Shown: positions 1-17,127 of the stretch, one piece after another
Position numbering within the stretch: the first letter of the stretch is position 1
Layout: each line of letters starts with the position of its first letter
Origin: Candidatus Latescibacterota bacterium
GTDB taxonomy: Bacteria; Latescibacterota; UBA2968
Direction: 5' to 3'
Assembly: GCA_965198115.1 (NCBI GenBank)
Contig: OZ240241.1
Span: 1,024,001 to 1,088,000 of the forward strand
DNA length: 64,000 bases
The notes under the pieces: generated by a model
Told to the model about the DNA's origin: nothing
Seen by the model: the letters and a program-made list of their open reading frames with translations, nothing else
Database searches by the model: none
Translations under genes and position numbers: made by a program

Positions 1-3000
1 ACGGCCTCTCACTGAATTCTCAGATTATGCTGAGCCTGACCGCCGGCACCTACCTGATCGGCGTTTCTGCCTTCAGCGGGTCTGGCACCTACGTCCTCCA
101 GGTCATCGAGGACGTTCCCGCAGTGGTCAATTCGATTTCTCTGGGTGAAACGGCTACAGGGTTACTTTCGGCCGGTGGTGCAGTCGATCACTATGTCTTT
201 ACCCTCGGTCAATCCACGACCGTCTCGATCGACCTGATGTCCGAGGAATTCGACGCGACACTCGAGTTGCACGCGACGGATGACCCCAACGCGGTAGATT
301 TTCTCACGTTTGTCGCTTTTAACGATGACGGGGGCGAGGGGCTGAACAGGGATCCTGGGTGCGCTGGCGGCGGGTAGCTATCTGATTCTGGCATCGTCGC
401 TCGACACAGGGGGCGCCTACGACCTGACACTCGCCGAAACGACGATAGAAGTCGGGAGCATTGCCCTTGGCGAGACGGTGATGGGGAGCGTCGCCTCCCC
501 TTCGGACACCCGCTATTTCACGCTGGACCTTGCCGAGGAGGCGACGGTTGTGATCGACCTCGTCGGCGATGAGATCGATGCGTTTCTGACGCTCCACGCA
601 ACGGATGATCCGGCGACAGCCGACTTCACGACGGTGGTCGGCGTGGACGACGACGGCGGTGAAGGGCTCAACTCCAGAATCGTGCAGCCACTTGCCGCTG
701 GAACCTACCTCATCGCCGCCGGCACGATTGGTGGAGGGGGGGCCTTTACACTGAGCGTCCTGCCGGCAGATATCAACGTCTCGTCCATCGGCGTGGGCGA
801 GACGGCGACGGGTGCGTTGGCTTCGTCCTCATCTACAGACTACTACACGCTGACCCTGAGTGAGGCGACGCCCATCGCCATCGACCTGATATCCTCCGAA
901 TTCGACCCTTTGCTCGAGCTGTATGAGACGGACGATCCGGTGGATGCGGACTTTAGGACATTCCTGGCCGTCGATGACGACGGCGGTGGCGGCCTGAATT
1001 CGCGTATCACACGGGTTCTGCCGGCTGGAACCTACCTCATCGCAGCAAAGTCTTTTGGCGGATTCGGCGCGTATGATCTCACGGTCTCCGAGGAGACGTT
1101 CGAAACACTGGCGATCTCTGTCGGCGAATCGGCTCCAGGCACGCTTCCCACACCGGCCGACGTCAATTTCTACACGCTCACGCTTTCAAATGACCTGACT
1201 GTCGCGATCGACCTCAGATCCGAGGCGTTCGACGCTTTTCTCGAAGTGTTCGAAACAGACACGCCACTGGGGGCCGATTTTTCGACGCTCGTCGCATCCG
1301 ACGACGATGGTGGGTTCGGGTTCGATTCTCGGATCGTCCGCGCCCTGACTGCCGGGACCTACCTGGTGGGGGTCTCCGCCTTCAGCGGTGCCGGAGACTA
1401 TGTGCTGGAGGTTGCGGAGGAGGTCATCGAGGTCGACGCCATCGCCTTGGGCGAGTCTCGCTCGGGCACCCTCGAATCGTCGAGTGACACGCATTACTTC
1501 ACGCTCGACCTGCCCGAGGGCGCGGCGATCGCGATCGATGCGATTTCAGACGAGATGGATCCTTTTCTCGATCTTTTCGACACGGACAATCCGCTCGAGG
1601 CCAACTTTTTCACGCAGTTGTCCGCCGACGACGACGGTGGCGAGGGCCTCAATTCGAGGATCGAGGTGGCGCTCCCGCCTGGCATTTACCTTGTCGGTGT
1701 TTCGCCGATCGGTTCGGGCGGTGCCTATACCCTTTCCGTCTCTGAATTCGACATCGAGGTTGCCTCCATTTCGGTCGGCGAGTCGGTGACGGGTTCACTC
1801 TCCAGCTCCGAGGAGGTCCTCTATTTTGCGCTGAGAGTCGAGACGGCCGCAGCAGTGACGATCGATATGACGTCGGACGAGTTCGACACGTTCCTCCAGG
1901 TCTTCGACGCGGACAATCCTGCCGACGCGGGCTTCTTCAACCTTCTGGCCGAAGATGACGACGGCGGCGAAGGTCTGAACTCCAGGACGGCGTTGCCGCT
2001 GGCCCCAGGGACCTACCTGATCGCGGCTCAAGCTTTCGGGGGCGCGGGCGCCTTCAGTCTGAGCGTGACGGAAGAGGTCCAGCAACTCAGTTCTATCTCG
2101 GTGGGTGAGTCGCGGACGGGGGAACTACTCGCCGATCTGGATCGGGATTTCTACACGCTGACGCTGACCGACAAGACGACGGTGTCGATCAGCCTGACCT
2201 CCGACGCGTTCGACGCCTTCCTCGAGCTCTACGACGCGGACAACGCGCTGGCAGCCGATTCGTCGACGCTCCTGGCGGTGGACGATGATGGCGGCGAAGG
2301 GCTGAATTCACAGTTAATGTTTTCCCTGTCAGAGGGGACCTATCTGATCGGTGCCTTATCGTTCAGCGGCATCGGCGTCTATGATCTCTCGGTCACCGAA
2401 GCCGAGAGCGAGTTGCTGACGGTCGCGCTAGGGGGAACAGAGAGCGGGGAATTGTCTTCGCTCACGTCCGTTGACTTCTATCTGCTCTCGCTGGACGAGG
2501 GCACGAGCGTGGTCATCGATCTCACGTCGGACGCGTTCGACACCTTCCTCGAGCTCTACGCGGCTGACAATCTGTTCGACGCCACGGACGTCAATTTCAT
2601 CACGCTCGACGATGACGGCGGCGTGGACTTCAACTCGCAGATCCAGACGGCACTGGGTGCCGGTGCCTACGTCATCGCCGTGTCTTCCCTGGACGCGCCT
2701 GGCGGCTACACGCTGAGCGTGACTGGCGGGGGGTCCCTGCCCGTTACCCCGATCGCTCTGGGTGAGACAGCTTCGTCCTCACTGGTTTCCGAAACGGATG
2801 TGGCTTTCTTCACGTTCAGCCTCGACTCGGAAACCGCGGTGACGGTCGACCTCACGTCGGACGAATTCGACGCGTTCCTTGAACTCGCCCGGGGTGACAA
2901 TCCCTTCCAGGTGGATATCGATGACCTCCTGGCTCTGGATGACGATGGGGGCGAGGGCCTGAACTCCCGGATTGACCTCGCGTTGGAAGCGGGCACGTAT

Positions 3001-4526
3001 CTGCTCGCGGTGACCTCCTTCTCCGGCGCGGGGGCTTTTGACATCCAGCTCGTCGGTGGGACGAGCGCGGTCGGGCCGAATGCCCGTGCCTCGGTGACGC
3101 TCGATTTCGAGGCGTCCGGGTCTGTCAACCTGATCGACGATGCCGTCACCACCGGTTCCGTGACTGGCGGGGGGACGGAGATCGTTTTCGAGGTGTTCGT
3201 GAATCCGGTCGGTAGAAGCATATCGGGCGGCTCCTTCGCCCTCGAAATCGATGCGGACCTTCTCGAGCTGACCGATTTCAAGCCCGCGACGGGTCTGTCC
3301 GCTGAAATTCTCTCTGTTGCCGGCGATGTCCTGATTTCGAGCACGGAAGGTGGTGTGCTGCTCGATGAGGGCTTCTTCGGATCGGCCACGCTGACGACAC
3401 TCTCGGACGTGACCGGACGGCAGCTGGGAGTAGGGGTCCGGGAGTTCACGCTGACGGATGAAGCCACCGGGACAACGGATGAGATTCGCACGCGTGGCGG
3501 GCTGAGATTCAACGCCCTTTCTCCAACCACCGTGGTTTCGGGCGAAGGACCCGTCGGTCCGGTGGCCCTGGATCTCGATCTCGCTGCGGGGGACCAGGGT
3601 CAGAGGGCGTCATCGGGAAGACCCGCCATCGGTGACATCATCACGGTGGAACTGGCTGCGACCGAGGGCGCTCTTGCCGCAGTCGGTTTACTGGCTGAGC
3701 TCACCTTCGACGGAAAGGCGCTGACCTTCCAGAGCTTCGCCCCGGCCGATGTGTTCGAAGGGGCTCTGCTGATTCCGAAGGCTCAGGAGGGGTCGGTCGA
3801 GATCAACCTCGCGCTGATCGGGGGCAATGCCGCACCGGCCGACGCAGGGAGCATCGGGACGTTCACGTTCGAGGTTCAGGAAGGATTCACGGACAGCTCC
3901 GTCGTGCAGATTACGTCCGGCCGGTATGCGCGCTCCTCTGGACAGGAGGAAATGCAGATCGGTTCGGGGGGCGCGTTTGTCGTAATCGGCGGAGCGAGCG
4001 AGGCGGCGGCCGGTGAGGGGCCCGTTGGACCTATCGCGTTGGACGGTGATCCCGCAGCGGGCGACCAGGGGAGCAGGTCCCTGCCGGCGACGGCCGTGGG
4101 TGGCAACGTGACGATCGACCTCGTGGCCACGGAAGGTGCTCAGAACGCATCGGGTGCTCTGGTTACGTTCAGATACGACGACAAGGCTTTCTCGTTCGTG
4201 TCCTTCACGACTTCCGATATCTTCGCCGGTGCGCTCGTGATTCCCAAAACGTCGCCCGGGTCCGTCGAACTGAACATCGCCCTGACCGGGCAAACCAAGG
4301 TGGAAAACGACGCCGGTAGCATCGGGACCATCACGCTCAACGTGCTCGACGGATTCGAGGGAAGCAGTGCTGTTGAATTGACCCAGGGTTCCTTCGCCTT
4401 GCCGGAAGGGGTCTCACCCGTGACGATTGGTGCAGGCGGTGCGACGCTGGTCGTCGGAGGCGACGGTGCGGCACCGCTTACACCGGACTTCGACGGAGAT
4501 GGAACGGTTGGCTTCGCTGATTTCCT

Positions 4527-5944
4527 GGCTATATCCGGATCTCTCAACGAGATGAAGTGGGTGAAGGTGCCGTGGTTCCTGGCATGGGGGCGCGGTTAGC
4601 GTGTGCGGAACCTCTTCGGAATCTGCTCAGGGATGTTTATGTCTCCGACGGTAAGGAAGATCATATCGTTGAATGCGTCGAGTGTGCGGAATCCGCTGGC
4701 TCGGTTCTTGACGATTTGGACGATTCGGTTGAGGCCTTCGGCGATGGCGTTGGTAAGACGCGTGTTCACGAATGCGAGGACGCCGAAGAAGTGCTGTCGC
4801 AGGGTCCTGACGAACTTTCGCAGGGGTTCAAGTCGACTTCTGAGTGCGGACGTCGTCCAGCATTTCAGGAAGCGTTCGGCAGCCCAGGGCGCTTTGTATT
4901 CCCAGAACTGCTCGAACTCGTCCTTGAGTCTCCAGGCTCTATAGATTCGGTAGTTCGCCTTCTCCAGTGCTTTGAGATCCCCTCTGGAGCGTGTCGCTGA
5001 GTGCCGGTAGAGGAGCCATCGGAGGCCCTTCATGGCTTTGCGCTCATCCGGGGCAGCTTTACGCCACTGGTCCTTACGGACCTCGTCAACGGCGGCATTG
5101 AGAGCCTTGACGATGTGAAAGCGATCGAGGACCAGCTTGGCATTCGGACAGTGTTCCTGGATGGCTCCGATGTAAGCTTCAAGCTTCGCTCATGTCGCAG
5201 CAGGCCCACTCGATCTTGGATCTCCGGTAGGGACTGAGAGCCTCTGTGAAGAACCGATCGATCGTTTTACGCGCCCTGCCGCGGCCAACCCACACCACGC
5301 AGGAGCGGTCCAGATCGTAAACGAGCGTGGCGTACCTGTGACGCTTGGCGTAGGAGATCTCGTCGATCCCGATGGTTTTGAGCCCTCGGATACGATGACC
5401 TTCACGAAGCCGCGTGATGGATCGGTGAAGGAGATCCGACAGCGTCGAGGCAGAGATGCGCAGTAACTCGGACGCCGCCTTCTGCGTCATGGTCTGGCAG
5501 TAGCGCAGCATGGCATACTCGAAGCGATACGTCACCCGAGAGAACCGCTCCGCCCACGGAATCTCCTCGACCACACGACCGTGGGTAGGACACCGAATCT
5601 CCCGAGGATGGTAGAGAAGCCAGACCCTCCACCCGCACACCGGAATGTCACGCCACCGACGCGGATGGGGCATTGTGCGGACGATTTTACCTCGACGGCC
5701 GCACTCCGGACAACAACAACCATTCTTATGTGGCTTTACGGCGATGACGAAACAGCTTCTCCCCTCAAACCACCAGCTGACAACACGGAACCCCTTGAAT
5801 CTCAGCAGTTTCGATAGTAATCTGCTCCCGGTCATAGGTCGCACCCCCTTCGCTTTGATTGTCCTACACACACAACCAAGCGTAGGGAACGATCTATGAC
5901 CTTGTCATTCTATAGTTTCACCGTTGAGAAACCCGGATAGAGCC
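4527..5944 (-). mobile_element. ISL3-family insertion sequence, copy 1 (1418 bp, transposase frameshifted)
   Basis: IRs GGCTATATCCGGATCTCTCAACG / GGCTCTATCCGGGTTTCTCAACG; 8-bp TSD GATTTCCT (4519-4526, 5945-5952). Relative to copy 2 it has a 9-bp deletion near 4976 and a 7-bp duplication at 5174-5187. Confidence 0.95.
4596..5871 (-). pseudogene. ISL3 transposase, disrupted
   Basis: Zn-finger CPECG...CPTHG, IGIDE, CCDM and NAIAEGLN motifs split over two ORFs. Confidence 0.9.
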
Positions 5945-10667: not shown

Positions 10668-13273
10668 CTACGATGAGTCCTGTACCTCGCGGTGGTAGTG
10701 AACCATCAACCCTTGATGTGTAAGCACCCCGACCAGCTTCATACTCTCCTCGTTCTCCACAACAGGCAGGGTCGAAACGTCTCCTTCTGCCAGGAGGGCG
10801 AGCGCTTCGGAAAGCGGTGCGTCCACTTCGATGTGAGGAGGATTTGACGACATCATATCCTCGGCGATAAAGAGCGTGAACAAATCATCCTGAAACACAA
10901 CCGGTTTGATGTCGGACAGTGGGATGATGCCTTTTAGACGGTCCGTGTCGTCGACGACCGGAAAATCAACGAGGGTACTGTTCTGGAAGACTGCAGAAAT
11001 CTCTCCGAGAGGGGTGTGCGTTCGCACGAACTCGTAGCCCGTCGACATCGCCTCTCCGACAGTAAGGCGATTGAGGACGTTCAGGTCAAAGCCCTGAGAG
11101 ATCCTCAAGCCCCTCCGGGCGAGCTTCATGTTACGGCTTACGATAAATTCCCGCCCAGATTACGCTATTCGCATTCTCACGCATCAAGAACTGACGACCG
11201 GAGATAAGAACTCTCTGGGCGTTCCGATGTAGACCGCGTCCTGTTCATTCCCACACGCCCGAGAAATAGGCTCTCGAACCGAGAAAATAGCGCGTTTCGA
11301 CCGATTAGGCTCAAGACGTGGCCAGGCCAGGTCCCAGCGGGCATAGGGGGGTGCGCGGTGTTGGCCCTGGGCGCGTCGCTGGCCCGAGGCCCGCACCAGG
11401 GGGGTAGGGGGGGTGGAAACGGTCAGCTCTCTTTTGGACACCGGTCATGTCCCCATTCTTTTACTAATCCGTCCTAATTTTCGTTCCGGAGGGCGCATCG
11501 CGGCCGTTGTCGACGAAAGGGGGTTTTTTCAGGTGTCGGAAACACTTAAACCAGTGCAAAAACAAGAGCTTGCGTCTGTCGACAAGGCGGCTTTGAAGGT
11601 GCTTCCCGAAAATGGCGAAGCGGGGTAGAAAATCGGCCGTCTCCCTGGCGGTGCTGCCGGTCGTGGACCCGTCGGAGGTCGAGAGCGTTTCGCGTCCCGA
11701 TCCCCCGGAATGTGCCAAACGCGTTCGCGTAAAGAAAGGGACAGCGTAGGTCCGACAACCGCTTTTGGCCGTTGCGCCTTGTAAGTACTCCTATGGCACT
11801 ATGTCGCATGGCCGCCAGATCTTAGGTGACCCTCATTAGGGAACGGTTTCCACTGTTAACCGTATTGAAACGATTCTGCCTATTTTGCGAATAGCTTAAG
11901 CCGGGCGGAGAATTATCGCAAGGCGTCACAAGCTTCAACGTGTAGATCGACTCTCGTTCGAGATAGCGGGCGAACAAGGAGCTGATGACGGTTCCGAGGA
12001 TCAGCGGGAGGATGATTTCGTAGTCGTCGGTCAGCTCGAACAGAATCAGCATTGCCGTCAGGGGCGCGTGCGTCGTTCCCGCGACGAGCGCCCCCATCCC
12101 GACGAGGGCGTAAGCGCCCGGTGGAGACGTGAAGTCGGGGAAGACCGCATTCACGAGGAACCCGAATGCGCCCCCGACCGACGCACCAATGAACAAAGAT
12201 GGCGCAAAGATGCCCCCGGACCCGCCTGCGCCCAGGGTGATGGACGTGGCGAGGAGTTTCACGGCGAGTAGACCCAGGATCAGCGTCACGTCGATCTGAT
12301 TGACGAGGATGCCCGTAATGGTGTCGTAACCGACCCCGAGGATCTGCGGAAACAGAAGCCCGATACCTCCGACCACGAGGCCACCCAATCCTGCCTTCAG
12401 ATAACTGGAGACCGGGAACTTTTCGAAGAGATCCTCGAAGGCGTAGAGCGTCTTCATGAAAAAGACAGCCAGCGTGCCGCTGAGGAAACCGAGCACCACG
12501 TAGAATAGGAGCTCGTAAAGGCTCGAAAGCTCGTATTCCGGGATGACGAAGGCCGTCTGGTTGCCCGATGCGTAACGGCTTACGGCGTTTGCGACGACCG
12601 AGGCGAACAGAATCGGGCTGAAGGTGCTGATGCTGAAGTCGCCGAGGATGACCTCCAGCGCAAAAAAACCGCCTGCGATCGGAGCGTTGAAGGTGGCGGA
12701 AATACCCGCCGCGGCCCCGCATCCGACGAGGACCTTGAGACGCTCGCCCGAAAGCCCGAACATTTGTCCGACCGCAGAGCCTGTGGCGGAACCGATCTGA
12801 ACGATCGGACCCTCTCGTCCGACTGATCCGCCCGAGCCGATGCAGAGCGCCGACGCCAGGGTTTTGATCAACGCAACGCGAGGACGGATGACACCGTTGT
12901 TCGTCGCTACCGCCGCCATCACCTCAGGAATGCCGGCGCCCTTGGCCTCTTTCGCCCATAGGTTGACGAGGAGAGTGACCAGAAGAAAACCGAACACGGT
13001 GACCGAAACCTGAGCATAGTTGGAACCGAGAATGGTCGGGACGTCCACGAGGAGTGATCGGGTGAAAAACTCGATCAGCCACTTGAAGACGAGGGAACCC
13101 ACACCGCAGGCAGCGCCGATCCCGACGGAGAGGATGATCAGGAACGGCGTCCCGGCGATACCCACGACGGCGAGCTTCCGCATCGCGTAGCGTCGCACGG
13201 CCTCCAGCCTCCGTTGCAGGCACATCCAAACCGATCCTGGCTCTGGATCAGTTGGTTCCATTTGCACGTTCAT
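10668..13273 (-). pseudogene. ClC chloride channel/antiporter with C-terminal CBS pair, split by an 802-bp element
   Basis: GAGIPE, GREGP and GIFAP motifs; excising the insert restores the in-frame linker ESIYTLKLARRGLRI joining to the CBS domains (10668-11129). Confidence 0.92.
11129..11930. mobile_element. Non-autonomous 802-bp element (MITE-like) with IS21-like TGT...ACA ends
   Basis: ~45-bp imperfect IRs TGTTACGGCTTACGATAAATTCCCGCCCAGATTTACGCTATTCGCA / TGTGACGCCTTGCGATAATTCTCCGCCCGGCTTAAGCTATTCGCA; 7-bp TSD AGCTTCA (11122-11128, 11931-11937); no transposase ORF. Confidence 0.92.
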
Positions 13274-15865: not shown

Positions 15866-17127
15866 GTGCATGGTTTCATAAACATTATTACGTATGTTCT
15901 GAACATTATTTGTAGCTTATGTTCTCCTTCAAAAGGAGGAGAACAATGCCAAGACGTTCGCCTTATGTGGTGCTACTGTCTGAGAAGGAACGGGTCGACC
16001 TCGAGCGAATGGCTGGACAATATACGTTACCGTATTATCAAGTGATCCGATCGAAAATCGTGCTTCTCGCCGCCGAGGGATTATCCAACAAGATTATCGC
16101 CCAACGGTTGGATGTCCCGCGTCCGATCGTAAGCAAATGGCGTAAGCGCTTTTTCGAAGAGCGTCTTTCGGGACTCGAAGATAGATCTCGTCCCGGGCGC
16201 CCGCCCGGTTTTCCCCCCTCAGGTGGTCGTTCAGATCAAGGCGCTGGCGTGTGAACTACCGAGCGAGAGCGGGATACCGCTCTCGCGGTTCAGCTGTTCC
16301 GAGATTGCCGCCGAGGCAGTGCAAAGGGGCTTCGTTGCCAAGATCAGCGGCGCCACTGTCTGGCGCTGGTTGAACGAGGACGCGATTCGTCCTTGGTATC
16401 ATCGCTCCTGGATTTTCCCACGGGACCCGGACTTCCAAACCAAAGCAGGTAGAGTCCTTGATCTGTATCACCGCCAATGGCAAGGAAAGCCTTTAGGGCC
16501 GAGGGAATATGTACTTTCTGCCGACGAAAAGACCAGTATTCAAGCACGAGCTCGCAAGCACGTTACCCTACCGCCAGCCTCGAACAGAGCGGCACGCGTT
16601 GAAACACGAATACGAGCGGAAAGGAGCCCTGGCCTATCTGGCTGCTCTCGACGTGCACAATGGTCGAATCTTCGGTCTCTGTGAGTCTTCTTCGGGTATC
16701 GAGCCCTTCAACCGGCTCCTGAGCCTGATCATGAGCCGGAAACCCTATTGCTCGGCAAAGAAAGTCTACCTCATCGTGGATAATGGCTCCTCGCACCGAG
16801 GGCAAACATGCATCGACCGTATCCAGGGGAAGTGGCCAAACATCCACCCCGTTCACCTTCCGATCCACGCAAGCTGGCTCAATCAGATCGAGATCTACTT
16901 CTCGATCCTCAAACGCAAGGCTCTGACACCTATCGAATTTGCATCGCTCGAAGAGCTTGAGGCAAGAATCCTCGGTTTTCAGGAACGCTACGGACGTATC
17001 GCCACACCCTTCAAATGGAAGTTCACACGAACAGATCTCGCGGAGATGATCGACAAACTCAGGTTCTACGATACGCCCTTGGCAAAGTCTGCTTAGAATA
17101 CGTCACCGTATTTGAGAACAGGAGTAC
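15866..17127 (+). mobile_element. IS630-family insertion sequence (ends approximate)
   Basis: HTH orf (15946-16254) plus DDE part (SADEKT, IVDNGSSH, ASWLNQIE); imperfect IRs sharing AGT.C....TTC..AAA.A...T.ACGTAT; inserted in a REP copy; no clean TSD. Confidence 0.85.
15946..17096 (+). CDS. IS630 transposase, two frameshifts (~16215 possibly programmed, ~16603 probably an indel)
   Basis: Three overlapping ORFs form a continuous IS630 transposase. Confidence 0.85.

Follow-up and report, generated by a model that had tools for sequence, protein, structure and literature searches.

What is the 802-bp sequence that interrupts a host gene in this contig, and by what means could a sequence resembling phage packaging DNA spread through a bacterial genome? 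The window, that is, the whole stretch of DNA analysed here, comprises 64,000 nt (contig OZ240241.1, positions 1,024,001-1,088,000), and coordinates refer to it unless they are given as genome positions. The element occupies 11129-11930 on the forward strand and is flanked by an exact 7-bp target duplication, AGCTTCA, which the initial annotation had reported and which is read in the sequence at 11122-11128 and 11931-11937 (both forward strand). The TGT…ACA ends and inverted repeats of about 45 bp described there are likewise present: the left end (11129-11173, forward strand) starts with TGT and contains two predicted transposase-binding repeats 22 bp apart, and the right end (11886-11930, reverse strand) is 80% complementary to it when the 45-nt arms are compared. 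Insertion into a conserved gene had also been claimed, and the target is indeed a ClC chloride channel-CBS gene (10668-13273, reverse strand), which matches Pfam families PF00654 (E 2.6e-106) and PF00571 and is split by the insertion. Removal of the element together with one duplication leaves a single open frame of 598 codons.

The element contains no full gene, and to that extent the statement that it has no credible open reading frame is borne out; it does hold the 5' stub of a terminase small-subunit (terS) gene, the first 34 codons of which were recognized by protein comparison at 11612-11713 (forward strand). The stub frame continues into unrelated sequence up to a stop at 11749. A promoter scan of the element gave no sites, and three matches to Rfam all fall far under the gathering cut-off. 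Neither an integrase, nor an att site, nor a replication module of the kind found in phage-inducible chromosomal islands (PICIs) is present in the 802 bp, and insertion is random, with duplication of the target. The element is thus a gene-free, multi-copy transposon, in which Mu-like ends surround two tandem cos-like sites and a terS stub.

The 8.43-Mb genome contains 18 two-ended copies, of which the window copy is one, and a further copy truncated after the second cos-like site, 19 in total; the proposal of a non-coding element that has spread therefore holds, with the element being non-autonomous. Seventeen of the two-ended copies measure 751-823 bp, and one of 3,598 bp contains two insertion sequences (IS). 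Two fragments complete the set, a nested right-end piece and a lone right end. Target duplications are exact over 7 bp in 12 of the 18 two-ended copies, carry one mismatch in another and are absent from five. Two of these five are identical, lie as direct repeats enclosing 9.8 kb, and share one 7-bp duplication that flanks the whole 11.3 kb, as replicative or composite transposition would leave. This composite (genome 1426120-1437467) encloses genes for a DUF3102 protein, a Mu-type transposase, an ECF sigma factor and a 1,069-aa protein in which the beta and beta-prime domains of RNA polymerase share a single frame. When the empty sites of the 18 copies were rebuilt, eight had a frame open through all 197 codons tested.

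Bacterial miniature inverted-repeat elements (MITEs) have terminal inverted repeats, a target duplication, no transposase and many copies. The element shares these traits, its copies being dispersed; unlike MITEs, it has ends that match a transposable phage and not an IS, and phage packaging DNA inside. We would file it as a non-autonomous terminal-inverted-repeat element with phage ends and cos cargo. Its abundance has to be seen against a genome in which repeats make up 16.6% of the sequence and single IS families exceed 200 copies; in a genome so flooded with IS copies, the copy number of the element needs no selection. Sequencing run X3 covers the element at a short-read depth of 140-270, compared with 13.5 in the flank, but may be the source material of the assembly, so that the depth serves as a check on the assembly only. 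A nearly complete copy also occurs in run X2, where it is flanked by sequence identical to a flank in this genome. Contigs of runs X5-X7 contain interior pieces and no element end, which is no proof of absence. Among the runs, which consist of contigs, neither a cut or packaged molecule nor a virion read appeared.

The initial annotation assigned transposition to an IS21-type partner. Target duplications of IS21 elements range from 4 to 8 bp, a range with which the 7-bp duplication is compatible, as are the TG…CA ends and the repeated subterminal sites. The genome contains four istA and 18 istB matches over cut-off, and the lone right end is found close to a scrap of istA/istB (genome 25.5 kb). 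However, 88 bp of another repeat separate that end from the scrap, the IS21 elements examined are broken, and those IS21 ends that can be read differ from the ends of the element. No transposase-bearing element with these ends occurs in the genome, and collection scans for an istA-istB partner sharing them found none. The ends instead match a Mu-like prophage in genome G105, and an IS21 partner is therefore unsupported. We consider it very improbable that the element is a non-autonomous IS21 derivative with one cos site.

The left end is identical to end A of the G105 prophage at 25 of 40 positions and to end B at 27 of 40; for the right end the values are 24 of 40 (end B) and 19 of 40. By chance, about 1-2 of 16.85 million genome positions reach 25 of 40, a level that also argues against the IS21 derivation. 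With a profile made from the two phage ends alone, 16 left ends of the element top the genome ranking. The homology of the ends is drawn from this one prophage, in which end A was located by a scan with the element ends. End A in turn led to end B, the position of which was set by the point at which two copies of the prophage diverge. End B begins with TA, a start known in some Leptospira prophages (PMC8705779). The prophage itself (C1:1-33336 and both ends of C2) occurs there more than once; it has a TG end and a TA end, and its terminase matches PHROG 675 and 15. None of its three ends pair around a target duplication, and a prophage in G051 runs off its contig. Genome G004 carries a 154-bp repeat at two places (C1:364609 and 2568124), with a TA-type end like the left end of the element and no cos score.

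A candidate source of transposase is found in the genome itself, where one element copy is followed, after 100 bp, by a DUF3102 gene and an open gene for a 460-aa Mu-type DDE transposase (genome 1,434,296-1,436,575). The best match of this transposase among 167 other genomes is the full Mu-like prophage of G105 (41%). It is about 75 aa short at the C-terminus, 15 of 16 relatives having 523-550 aa, and no MuB-type gene lies beside it; the element family may now be stranded. Seven distant transposase loci have no matching ends, and no viral contigs with the transposase alone, or with the public protein P0023, were confirmed. A 40% transposase match at genome 541 kb was set aside, as it lies among host genes and does not represent a Mu remnant. 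Duplications measure 5 bp in Mu and 6 bp in B3 (PMC8705779), and the 7 bp of the element agree with neither. The element resembles Mu/B3-like phages in end sequence, repeat spacing, TG/TA start and its candidate DUF3102-DDE transposase partner (PHROG 310). In contrast to these phages, which are 36-39 kb long with 5- or 6-bp duplications (PMC8705779), it measures 0.8 kb, makes 7-bp duplications and has no phage genes, and cos-like sites take the place of Mu-type packaging from the host flank.

The cos likeness had been put forward for one site, at 11399-11483, and the sequence quoted for it matches the window as written. We searched IMG/VR with the large terminase subunit (TerL) of the resident prophage, which led to 54 viral contigs, and the region upstream of terS was read in the 41 with enough flank. 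From 17 unrelated phage HNH-terS spacers (IMG/VR) we built a three-block cos profile, leaving out near-duplicates and spacers without a visible motif and picking the anchors by eye, so that the profile leans toward the motif and not toward the element. It replaced an earlier local nhmmer cos model, which was dropped as useless because its positive control gave E 120. When each lineage was left out in turn, the true site was recovered in 16 of 17 cases and missed by one base in the remaining one. Held-out scores were 29.5 for HK97, 41.6 for SfV, 16.2 for AH07, 28.8 for PAJU2 and 30.4 for KpF5; in the first four the best match runs across the record junction, and in KpF5 it lies in the endonuclease-terS spacer.

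The profile detects not only the site described earlier (site B, forward strand) but also a second one that had been overlooked, site A, at 11191-11273 on the same strand. Among its ten best of 16.85 million genome positions are eight copies of site A, the HNH-terS spacer of the resident prophage (rank 3) and a site in a decayed island; outside element, island and prophage, no position reaches a score of 27, three reach 21, 23 reach 17 and 530 reach 12. Site A scores 12.9-29.6 over 18 copies, the window copy being the weakest (12.9) with an 8-bp deletion in the G-run. The site is split by an IS in one other copy and damaged in 2 of 19 overall. Its left arm is identical to the prophage cos at 17 of 19 positions in 11 copies, with no other such matches in the genome, and most copies share 12 bases with PAJU2 across its genome junction. 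Site B scores 6.8-21.9 over 18 copies and 17.2 in the window, a value reached by 11 of 1,000 shuffles and, at about 17, by the 23 other genome sites counted above. None of 24,074 other 700-nt genome windows contains both scores of the window copy on the same strand.

Over 84 columns, site B aligns with the cos region of KpF5 (equalled by 1 of 300 shuffles), and it also aligns with that of the resident prophage (0 of 300); the match to HK97 is weak (7 of 300) and there is none to SfV (88 of 300). BLASTN of the element against phages and plasmids gave short matches at chance level, none covering more than 7% of the query. Both the independent profile and the direct comparison with PAJU2, KpF5 and the resident prophage thus support the cos likeness. 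Judged by sequence, the motif of an HK97/PAJU2-type HNH-terS spacer is strong in site A and moderate in site B. In common with the cos regions of HK97, PAJU2 and KpF5 are the G-run, AAA, spacer, ACCG core, overhang, T-run and CG…AAA arm, as well as, for site B, a position ahead of the start of a terS gene belonging to the same family; in contrast to them, the element has no upstream HNH gene, a terS gene cut to 34 codons, and tandem sites within a transposon. The predicted cut and overhang stretch of site B, in register with HK97, AH07 and PAJU2, lies at 11443-11454 (forward strand).

The terS stub is located about 130 bp downstream of site B, and no such stub is seen after site A. The frame at 11612 has one PHROG match, to a terminase small subunit (E 0.18), and a word-index protein search with the stub returned nothing. 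A full phmmer scan yielded eight proteins, of which three are similar short stubs and five are longer and 71-76% identical to the stub over the 34 N-terminal residues. These five match PHROG 12559 (terminase small subunit) with E values from 2e-5 to 2.5e-17, and one of them leads to the terS genes of PAJU2 and KpF5. Site B and the stub thus arrived together as one block, with the cos-terS region of a PAJU2/KpF5-type phage or satellite as its source. The public proteins P0019-P0024 have a common terS N-terminus and unrelated, differing C-termini, and it may be common for related elements elsewhere to carry broken terS copies.

Near-identical versions of site B and the terS stub are also found in the decayed island (genome 8.397-8.403 Mb), which contains three cos regions of the site-B type that lack element ends. 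The island is likely what is left of cos-type satellites, and the likely donor of the element interior. It also holds parA and a toxin-antitoxin-like pair (genome 8395000-8404000), and two copies of an ORF of about 190 aa resembling replication initiators, one of which lies upstream of a cos-like site and is noted as a lead.

Passive capture is a strong rival to any functional reading of these sites. According to this view, Mu-like ends closed on scraps of cos DNA from a phage or satellite, and the resulting MITE multiplied in an IS bloom while the sites stayed idle. The bloom itself, the copies without ends in the island, a stub that is a dead gene, the damage to site A, the absence of any useful spacing and the existence of the 154-bp G004 repeat with a similar end and no cos all speak for it. 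But it needs two separate captures in the same orientation, with nothing else of note captured, although outside the element the 8.4 Mb contain the signal just four times (once in the prophage, three times in the island). Deletions of 29 and about 60 bp, moreover, map between sites A and B.

Variation among the copies bears on the same choice. It had been suggested that the cos segment would be more conserved than the rest of the element, and the opposite is observed: site B is the least conserved part, although its motif is kept in all 19 copies, including those with a non-homologous left arm. Diversity is 0.14-0.22 at 11388-11463, 0.10 in the adjoining interval and 0-0.08 elsewhere in the element. 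Within site B it is 0.31 in the left arm and 0.34 in the overhang stretch, compared with 0.075 in the core and 0.08 in the equivalent of the TerS site; the rest of the interior has 0.03, against the 0.34 of the predicted overhang. For HK97, which sets the register, PMC11331095 gives a 10-nt 3' overhang and a TerS site at +15 to +29. Two unrelated left arms combine with three main overhang types, and five of the six combinations occur. Runs X2, X5 and X7 provide further site-B variants as loose ends.

Recombination is element-wide, with at least 18 events and 1,115 of 2,278 site pairs incompatible, and the mosaic of site B is therefore no proof of cutting. Since recombination extends beyond site B, plain gene conversion with the three island sites could produce the mosaic, which is how passive capture would account for it. 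However, several site-B alleles of the element copies are absent from the island, and site B persists in copies whose left arm has been replaced. Taken jointly, idle captured sites and a mosaic made by gene conversion with island copies seem to us rather unlikely.

Could the sites be used? A helper phage had been postulated, and a possible one is resident: the only terminase module of the genome lies in a 42.8-kb HK97-type prophage at tRNA-Pro (genome 641601-684468), with genes for integrase, HNH, terS, terL, portal, protease and capsid. The prophage has a 47-bp att repeat, its head and packaging genes are open, and a gene pair between HNH and cos is, we presume, hicAB-like. Its overhang equivalent equals no allele of site A or B, its TerS matches PHROG 83 while the stub family is PHROG 12559, and no element copy lies inside it. 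The idea that copies might be spaced one headful apart, and so mobilise host DNA, is not supported in the present genome, with no same-strand pairs at 33-52 kb (0.6 expected by chance); the nearest same-strand pair is 31.2 kb apart, 73% of the prophage length. Cos terminases require a second site. Generalised transduction of host DNA by cos phages is assumed not to take place, since it would need a pair of cos-like sites one headful apart, too improbable an arrangement (PMC6687093).

We hypothesize that the element is a hitch-hiker on two helpers, which would spread by Mu-type transposition and be cut and packaged by a cos-type terminase; the chances for and against this reading seem to us about evenly balanced. 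A Mu-type transposase acting in trans, from the resident DUF3102-transposase pair or from a full parent prophage, would move the element, and the HK97/PAJU2-type terminase of an incoming or induced cos phage would cut site A or B. Being cut by such terminases is likely what would allow the element to persist. Two compatible sites would come to lie about one phage length from each other through a burst of transposition, or because the element travels on the replicon of a phage or satellite. The piece between them would be packaged and circularised through its sticky ends in the next cell, where transposition or recombination with a resident copy would rescue it. At the cut site, satellites and phages would contribute new site-B alleles, which would widen the range of helpers.

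In favour of the hitch-hiker reading we count the copies and their duplications, the cos likeness, the Mu-like ends, the terS stub and the retention of the site-B motif, as well as the concentration of diversity in the left arm and overhang stretch and not in the core or TerS-site equivalent. Against it stand the spacing and the need for a second site, the mismatch of overhang and TerS with the prophage, the absence of a copy from that prophage, element-wide recombination, the damaged site A, the modest site B and the IS flood, together with the 7-bp duplication, the short transposase without MuB and the absence of a whole element from 167 other genomes of the phylum.

Dispersed copies, two types of site and a diversity of overhang alleles fit equally well with a packaging decoy, for which the absence of phage-length spacing is no obstacle. 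Some 40 chromosomal cos-like sites of several alleles would sequester or divert the terminase of infecting cos phages, or lead to cutting of the chromosome; phage yield would fall, and the host lineage would keep the element as a defence. The copies break host genes, however, as the eight open empty sites indicate, and 40 sites are presumably few compared with a replicating phage concatemer. We regard host defence of this kind as improbable, well behind passive capture.

The hitch-hiker reading has a close counterpart in a laboratory construct. Groisman and Casadaban reportedly made, in 1987 (Gene 51:77, a reference listed in PMC2865507), a mini-Mu replicon cosmid with a plasmid origin and a marker, which used lambda as helper. 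As in that construct, Mu-like ends surround the cos of an unrelated phage, and a Mu helper and a cos helper are predicted for the element. In contrast to it, the element is natural, 0.8 kb long and without origin or gene, and has two HK97/PAJU2-type cos-like sites and 7-bp duplications. We tentatively suggest, while inclining somewhat against it, that the element acts as a natural gene-free "mini-Mu cosmid", with swappable cos sites that would make cos phages carry the element, along with host DNA lying between two copies.

PICIs are 10-15 kb long, use an integrase to enter a single att site, replicate, and code for interference proteins. The element, without gene or origin, differs from them in occupying many insertion sites through transposition. 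Cos-type PICIs, namely EcCICFT073 and SaPIbov5/SaPIbov4, have a helper-type cos and need the helper terminase, and EcCICFT073 has two cos sites, both functional (PMC6092414); the element resembles them in its helper-type sites, two of them cos-like. A full-text literature search, which mostly covered papers outside subscription and main texts, found no natural transposon-borne cos element.

The whole element is found in none of 167 other genomes of the phylum and 40 relatives, which gave only two matches of 28-36 bp. Patterns of site B had one chance match in viral contigs and afterwards none in viral, genome or metagenome contigs. Patterns of the ends had none in genome contigs and 18 in metagenomes, all by chance, and against plasmids one end gave one chance match and the other none. 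A site-B model, run over 131 other genomes of the class, matched once, in a stretch that resembles a terminator and has no cos score.

If the hitch-hiker reading is correct, a transposon that scatters cos sites would lift the limit on transduction by cos phages, as the laboratory mini-Mu cosmid was designed to, and the element would be about the smallest possible phage satellite, with zero genes and two different helpers. Even with idle sites, it is a miniature, naturally occurring derivative of a transposable phage, and one whose 7-bp duplication is unusual. The series of predicted overhang alleles provides a ready test set for terminase specificity.

Elsewhere in the window, pieces of IS are present at 4557-5871 and 15919-17096, and a 1,373-aa ORF with tandem acidic repeats (478-4599, forward strand) has a C-terminus that was apparently cut by an IS.
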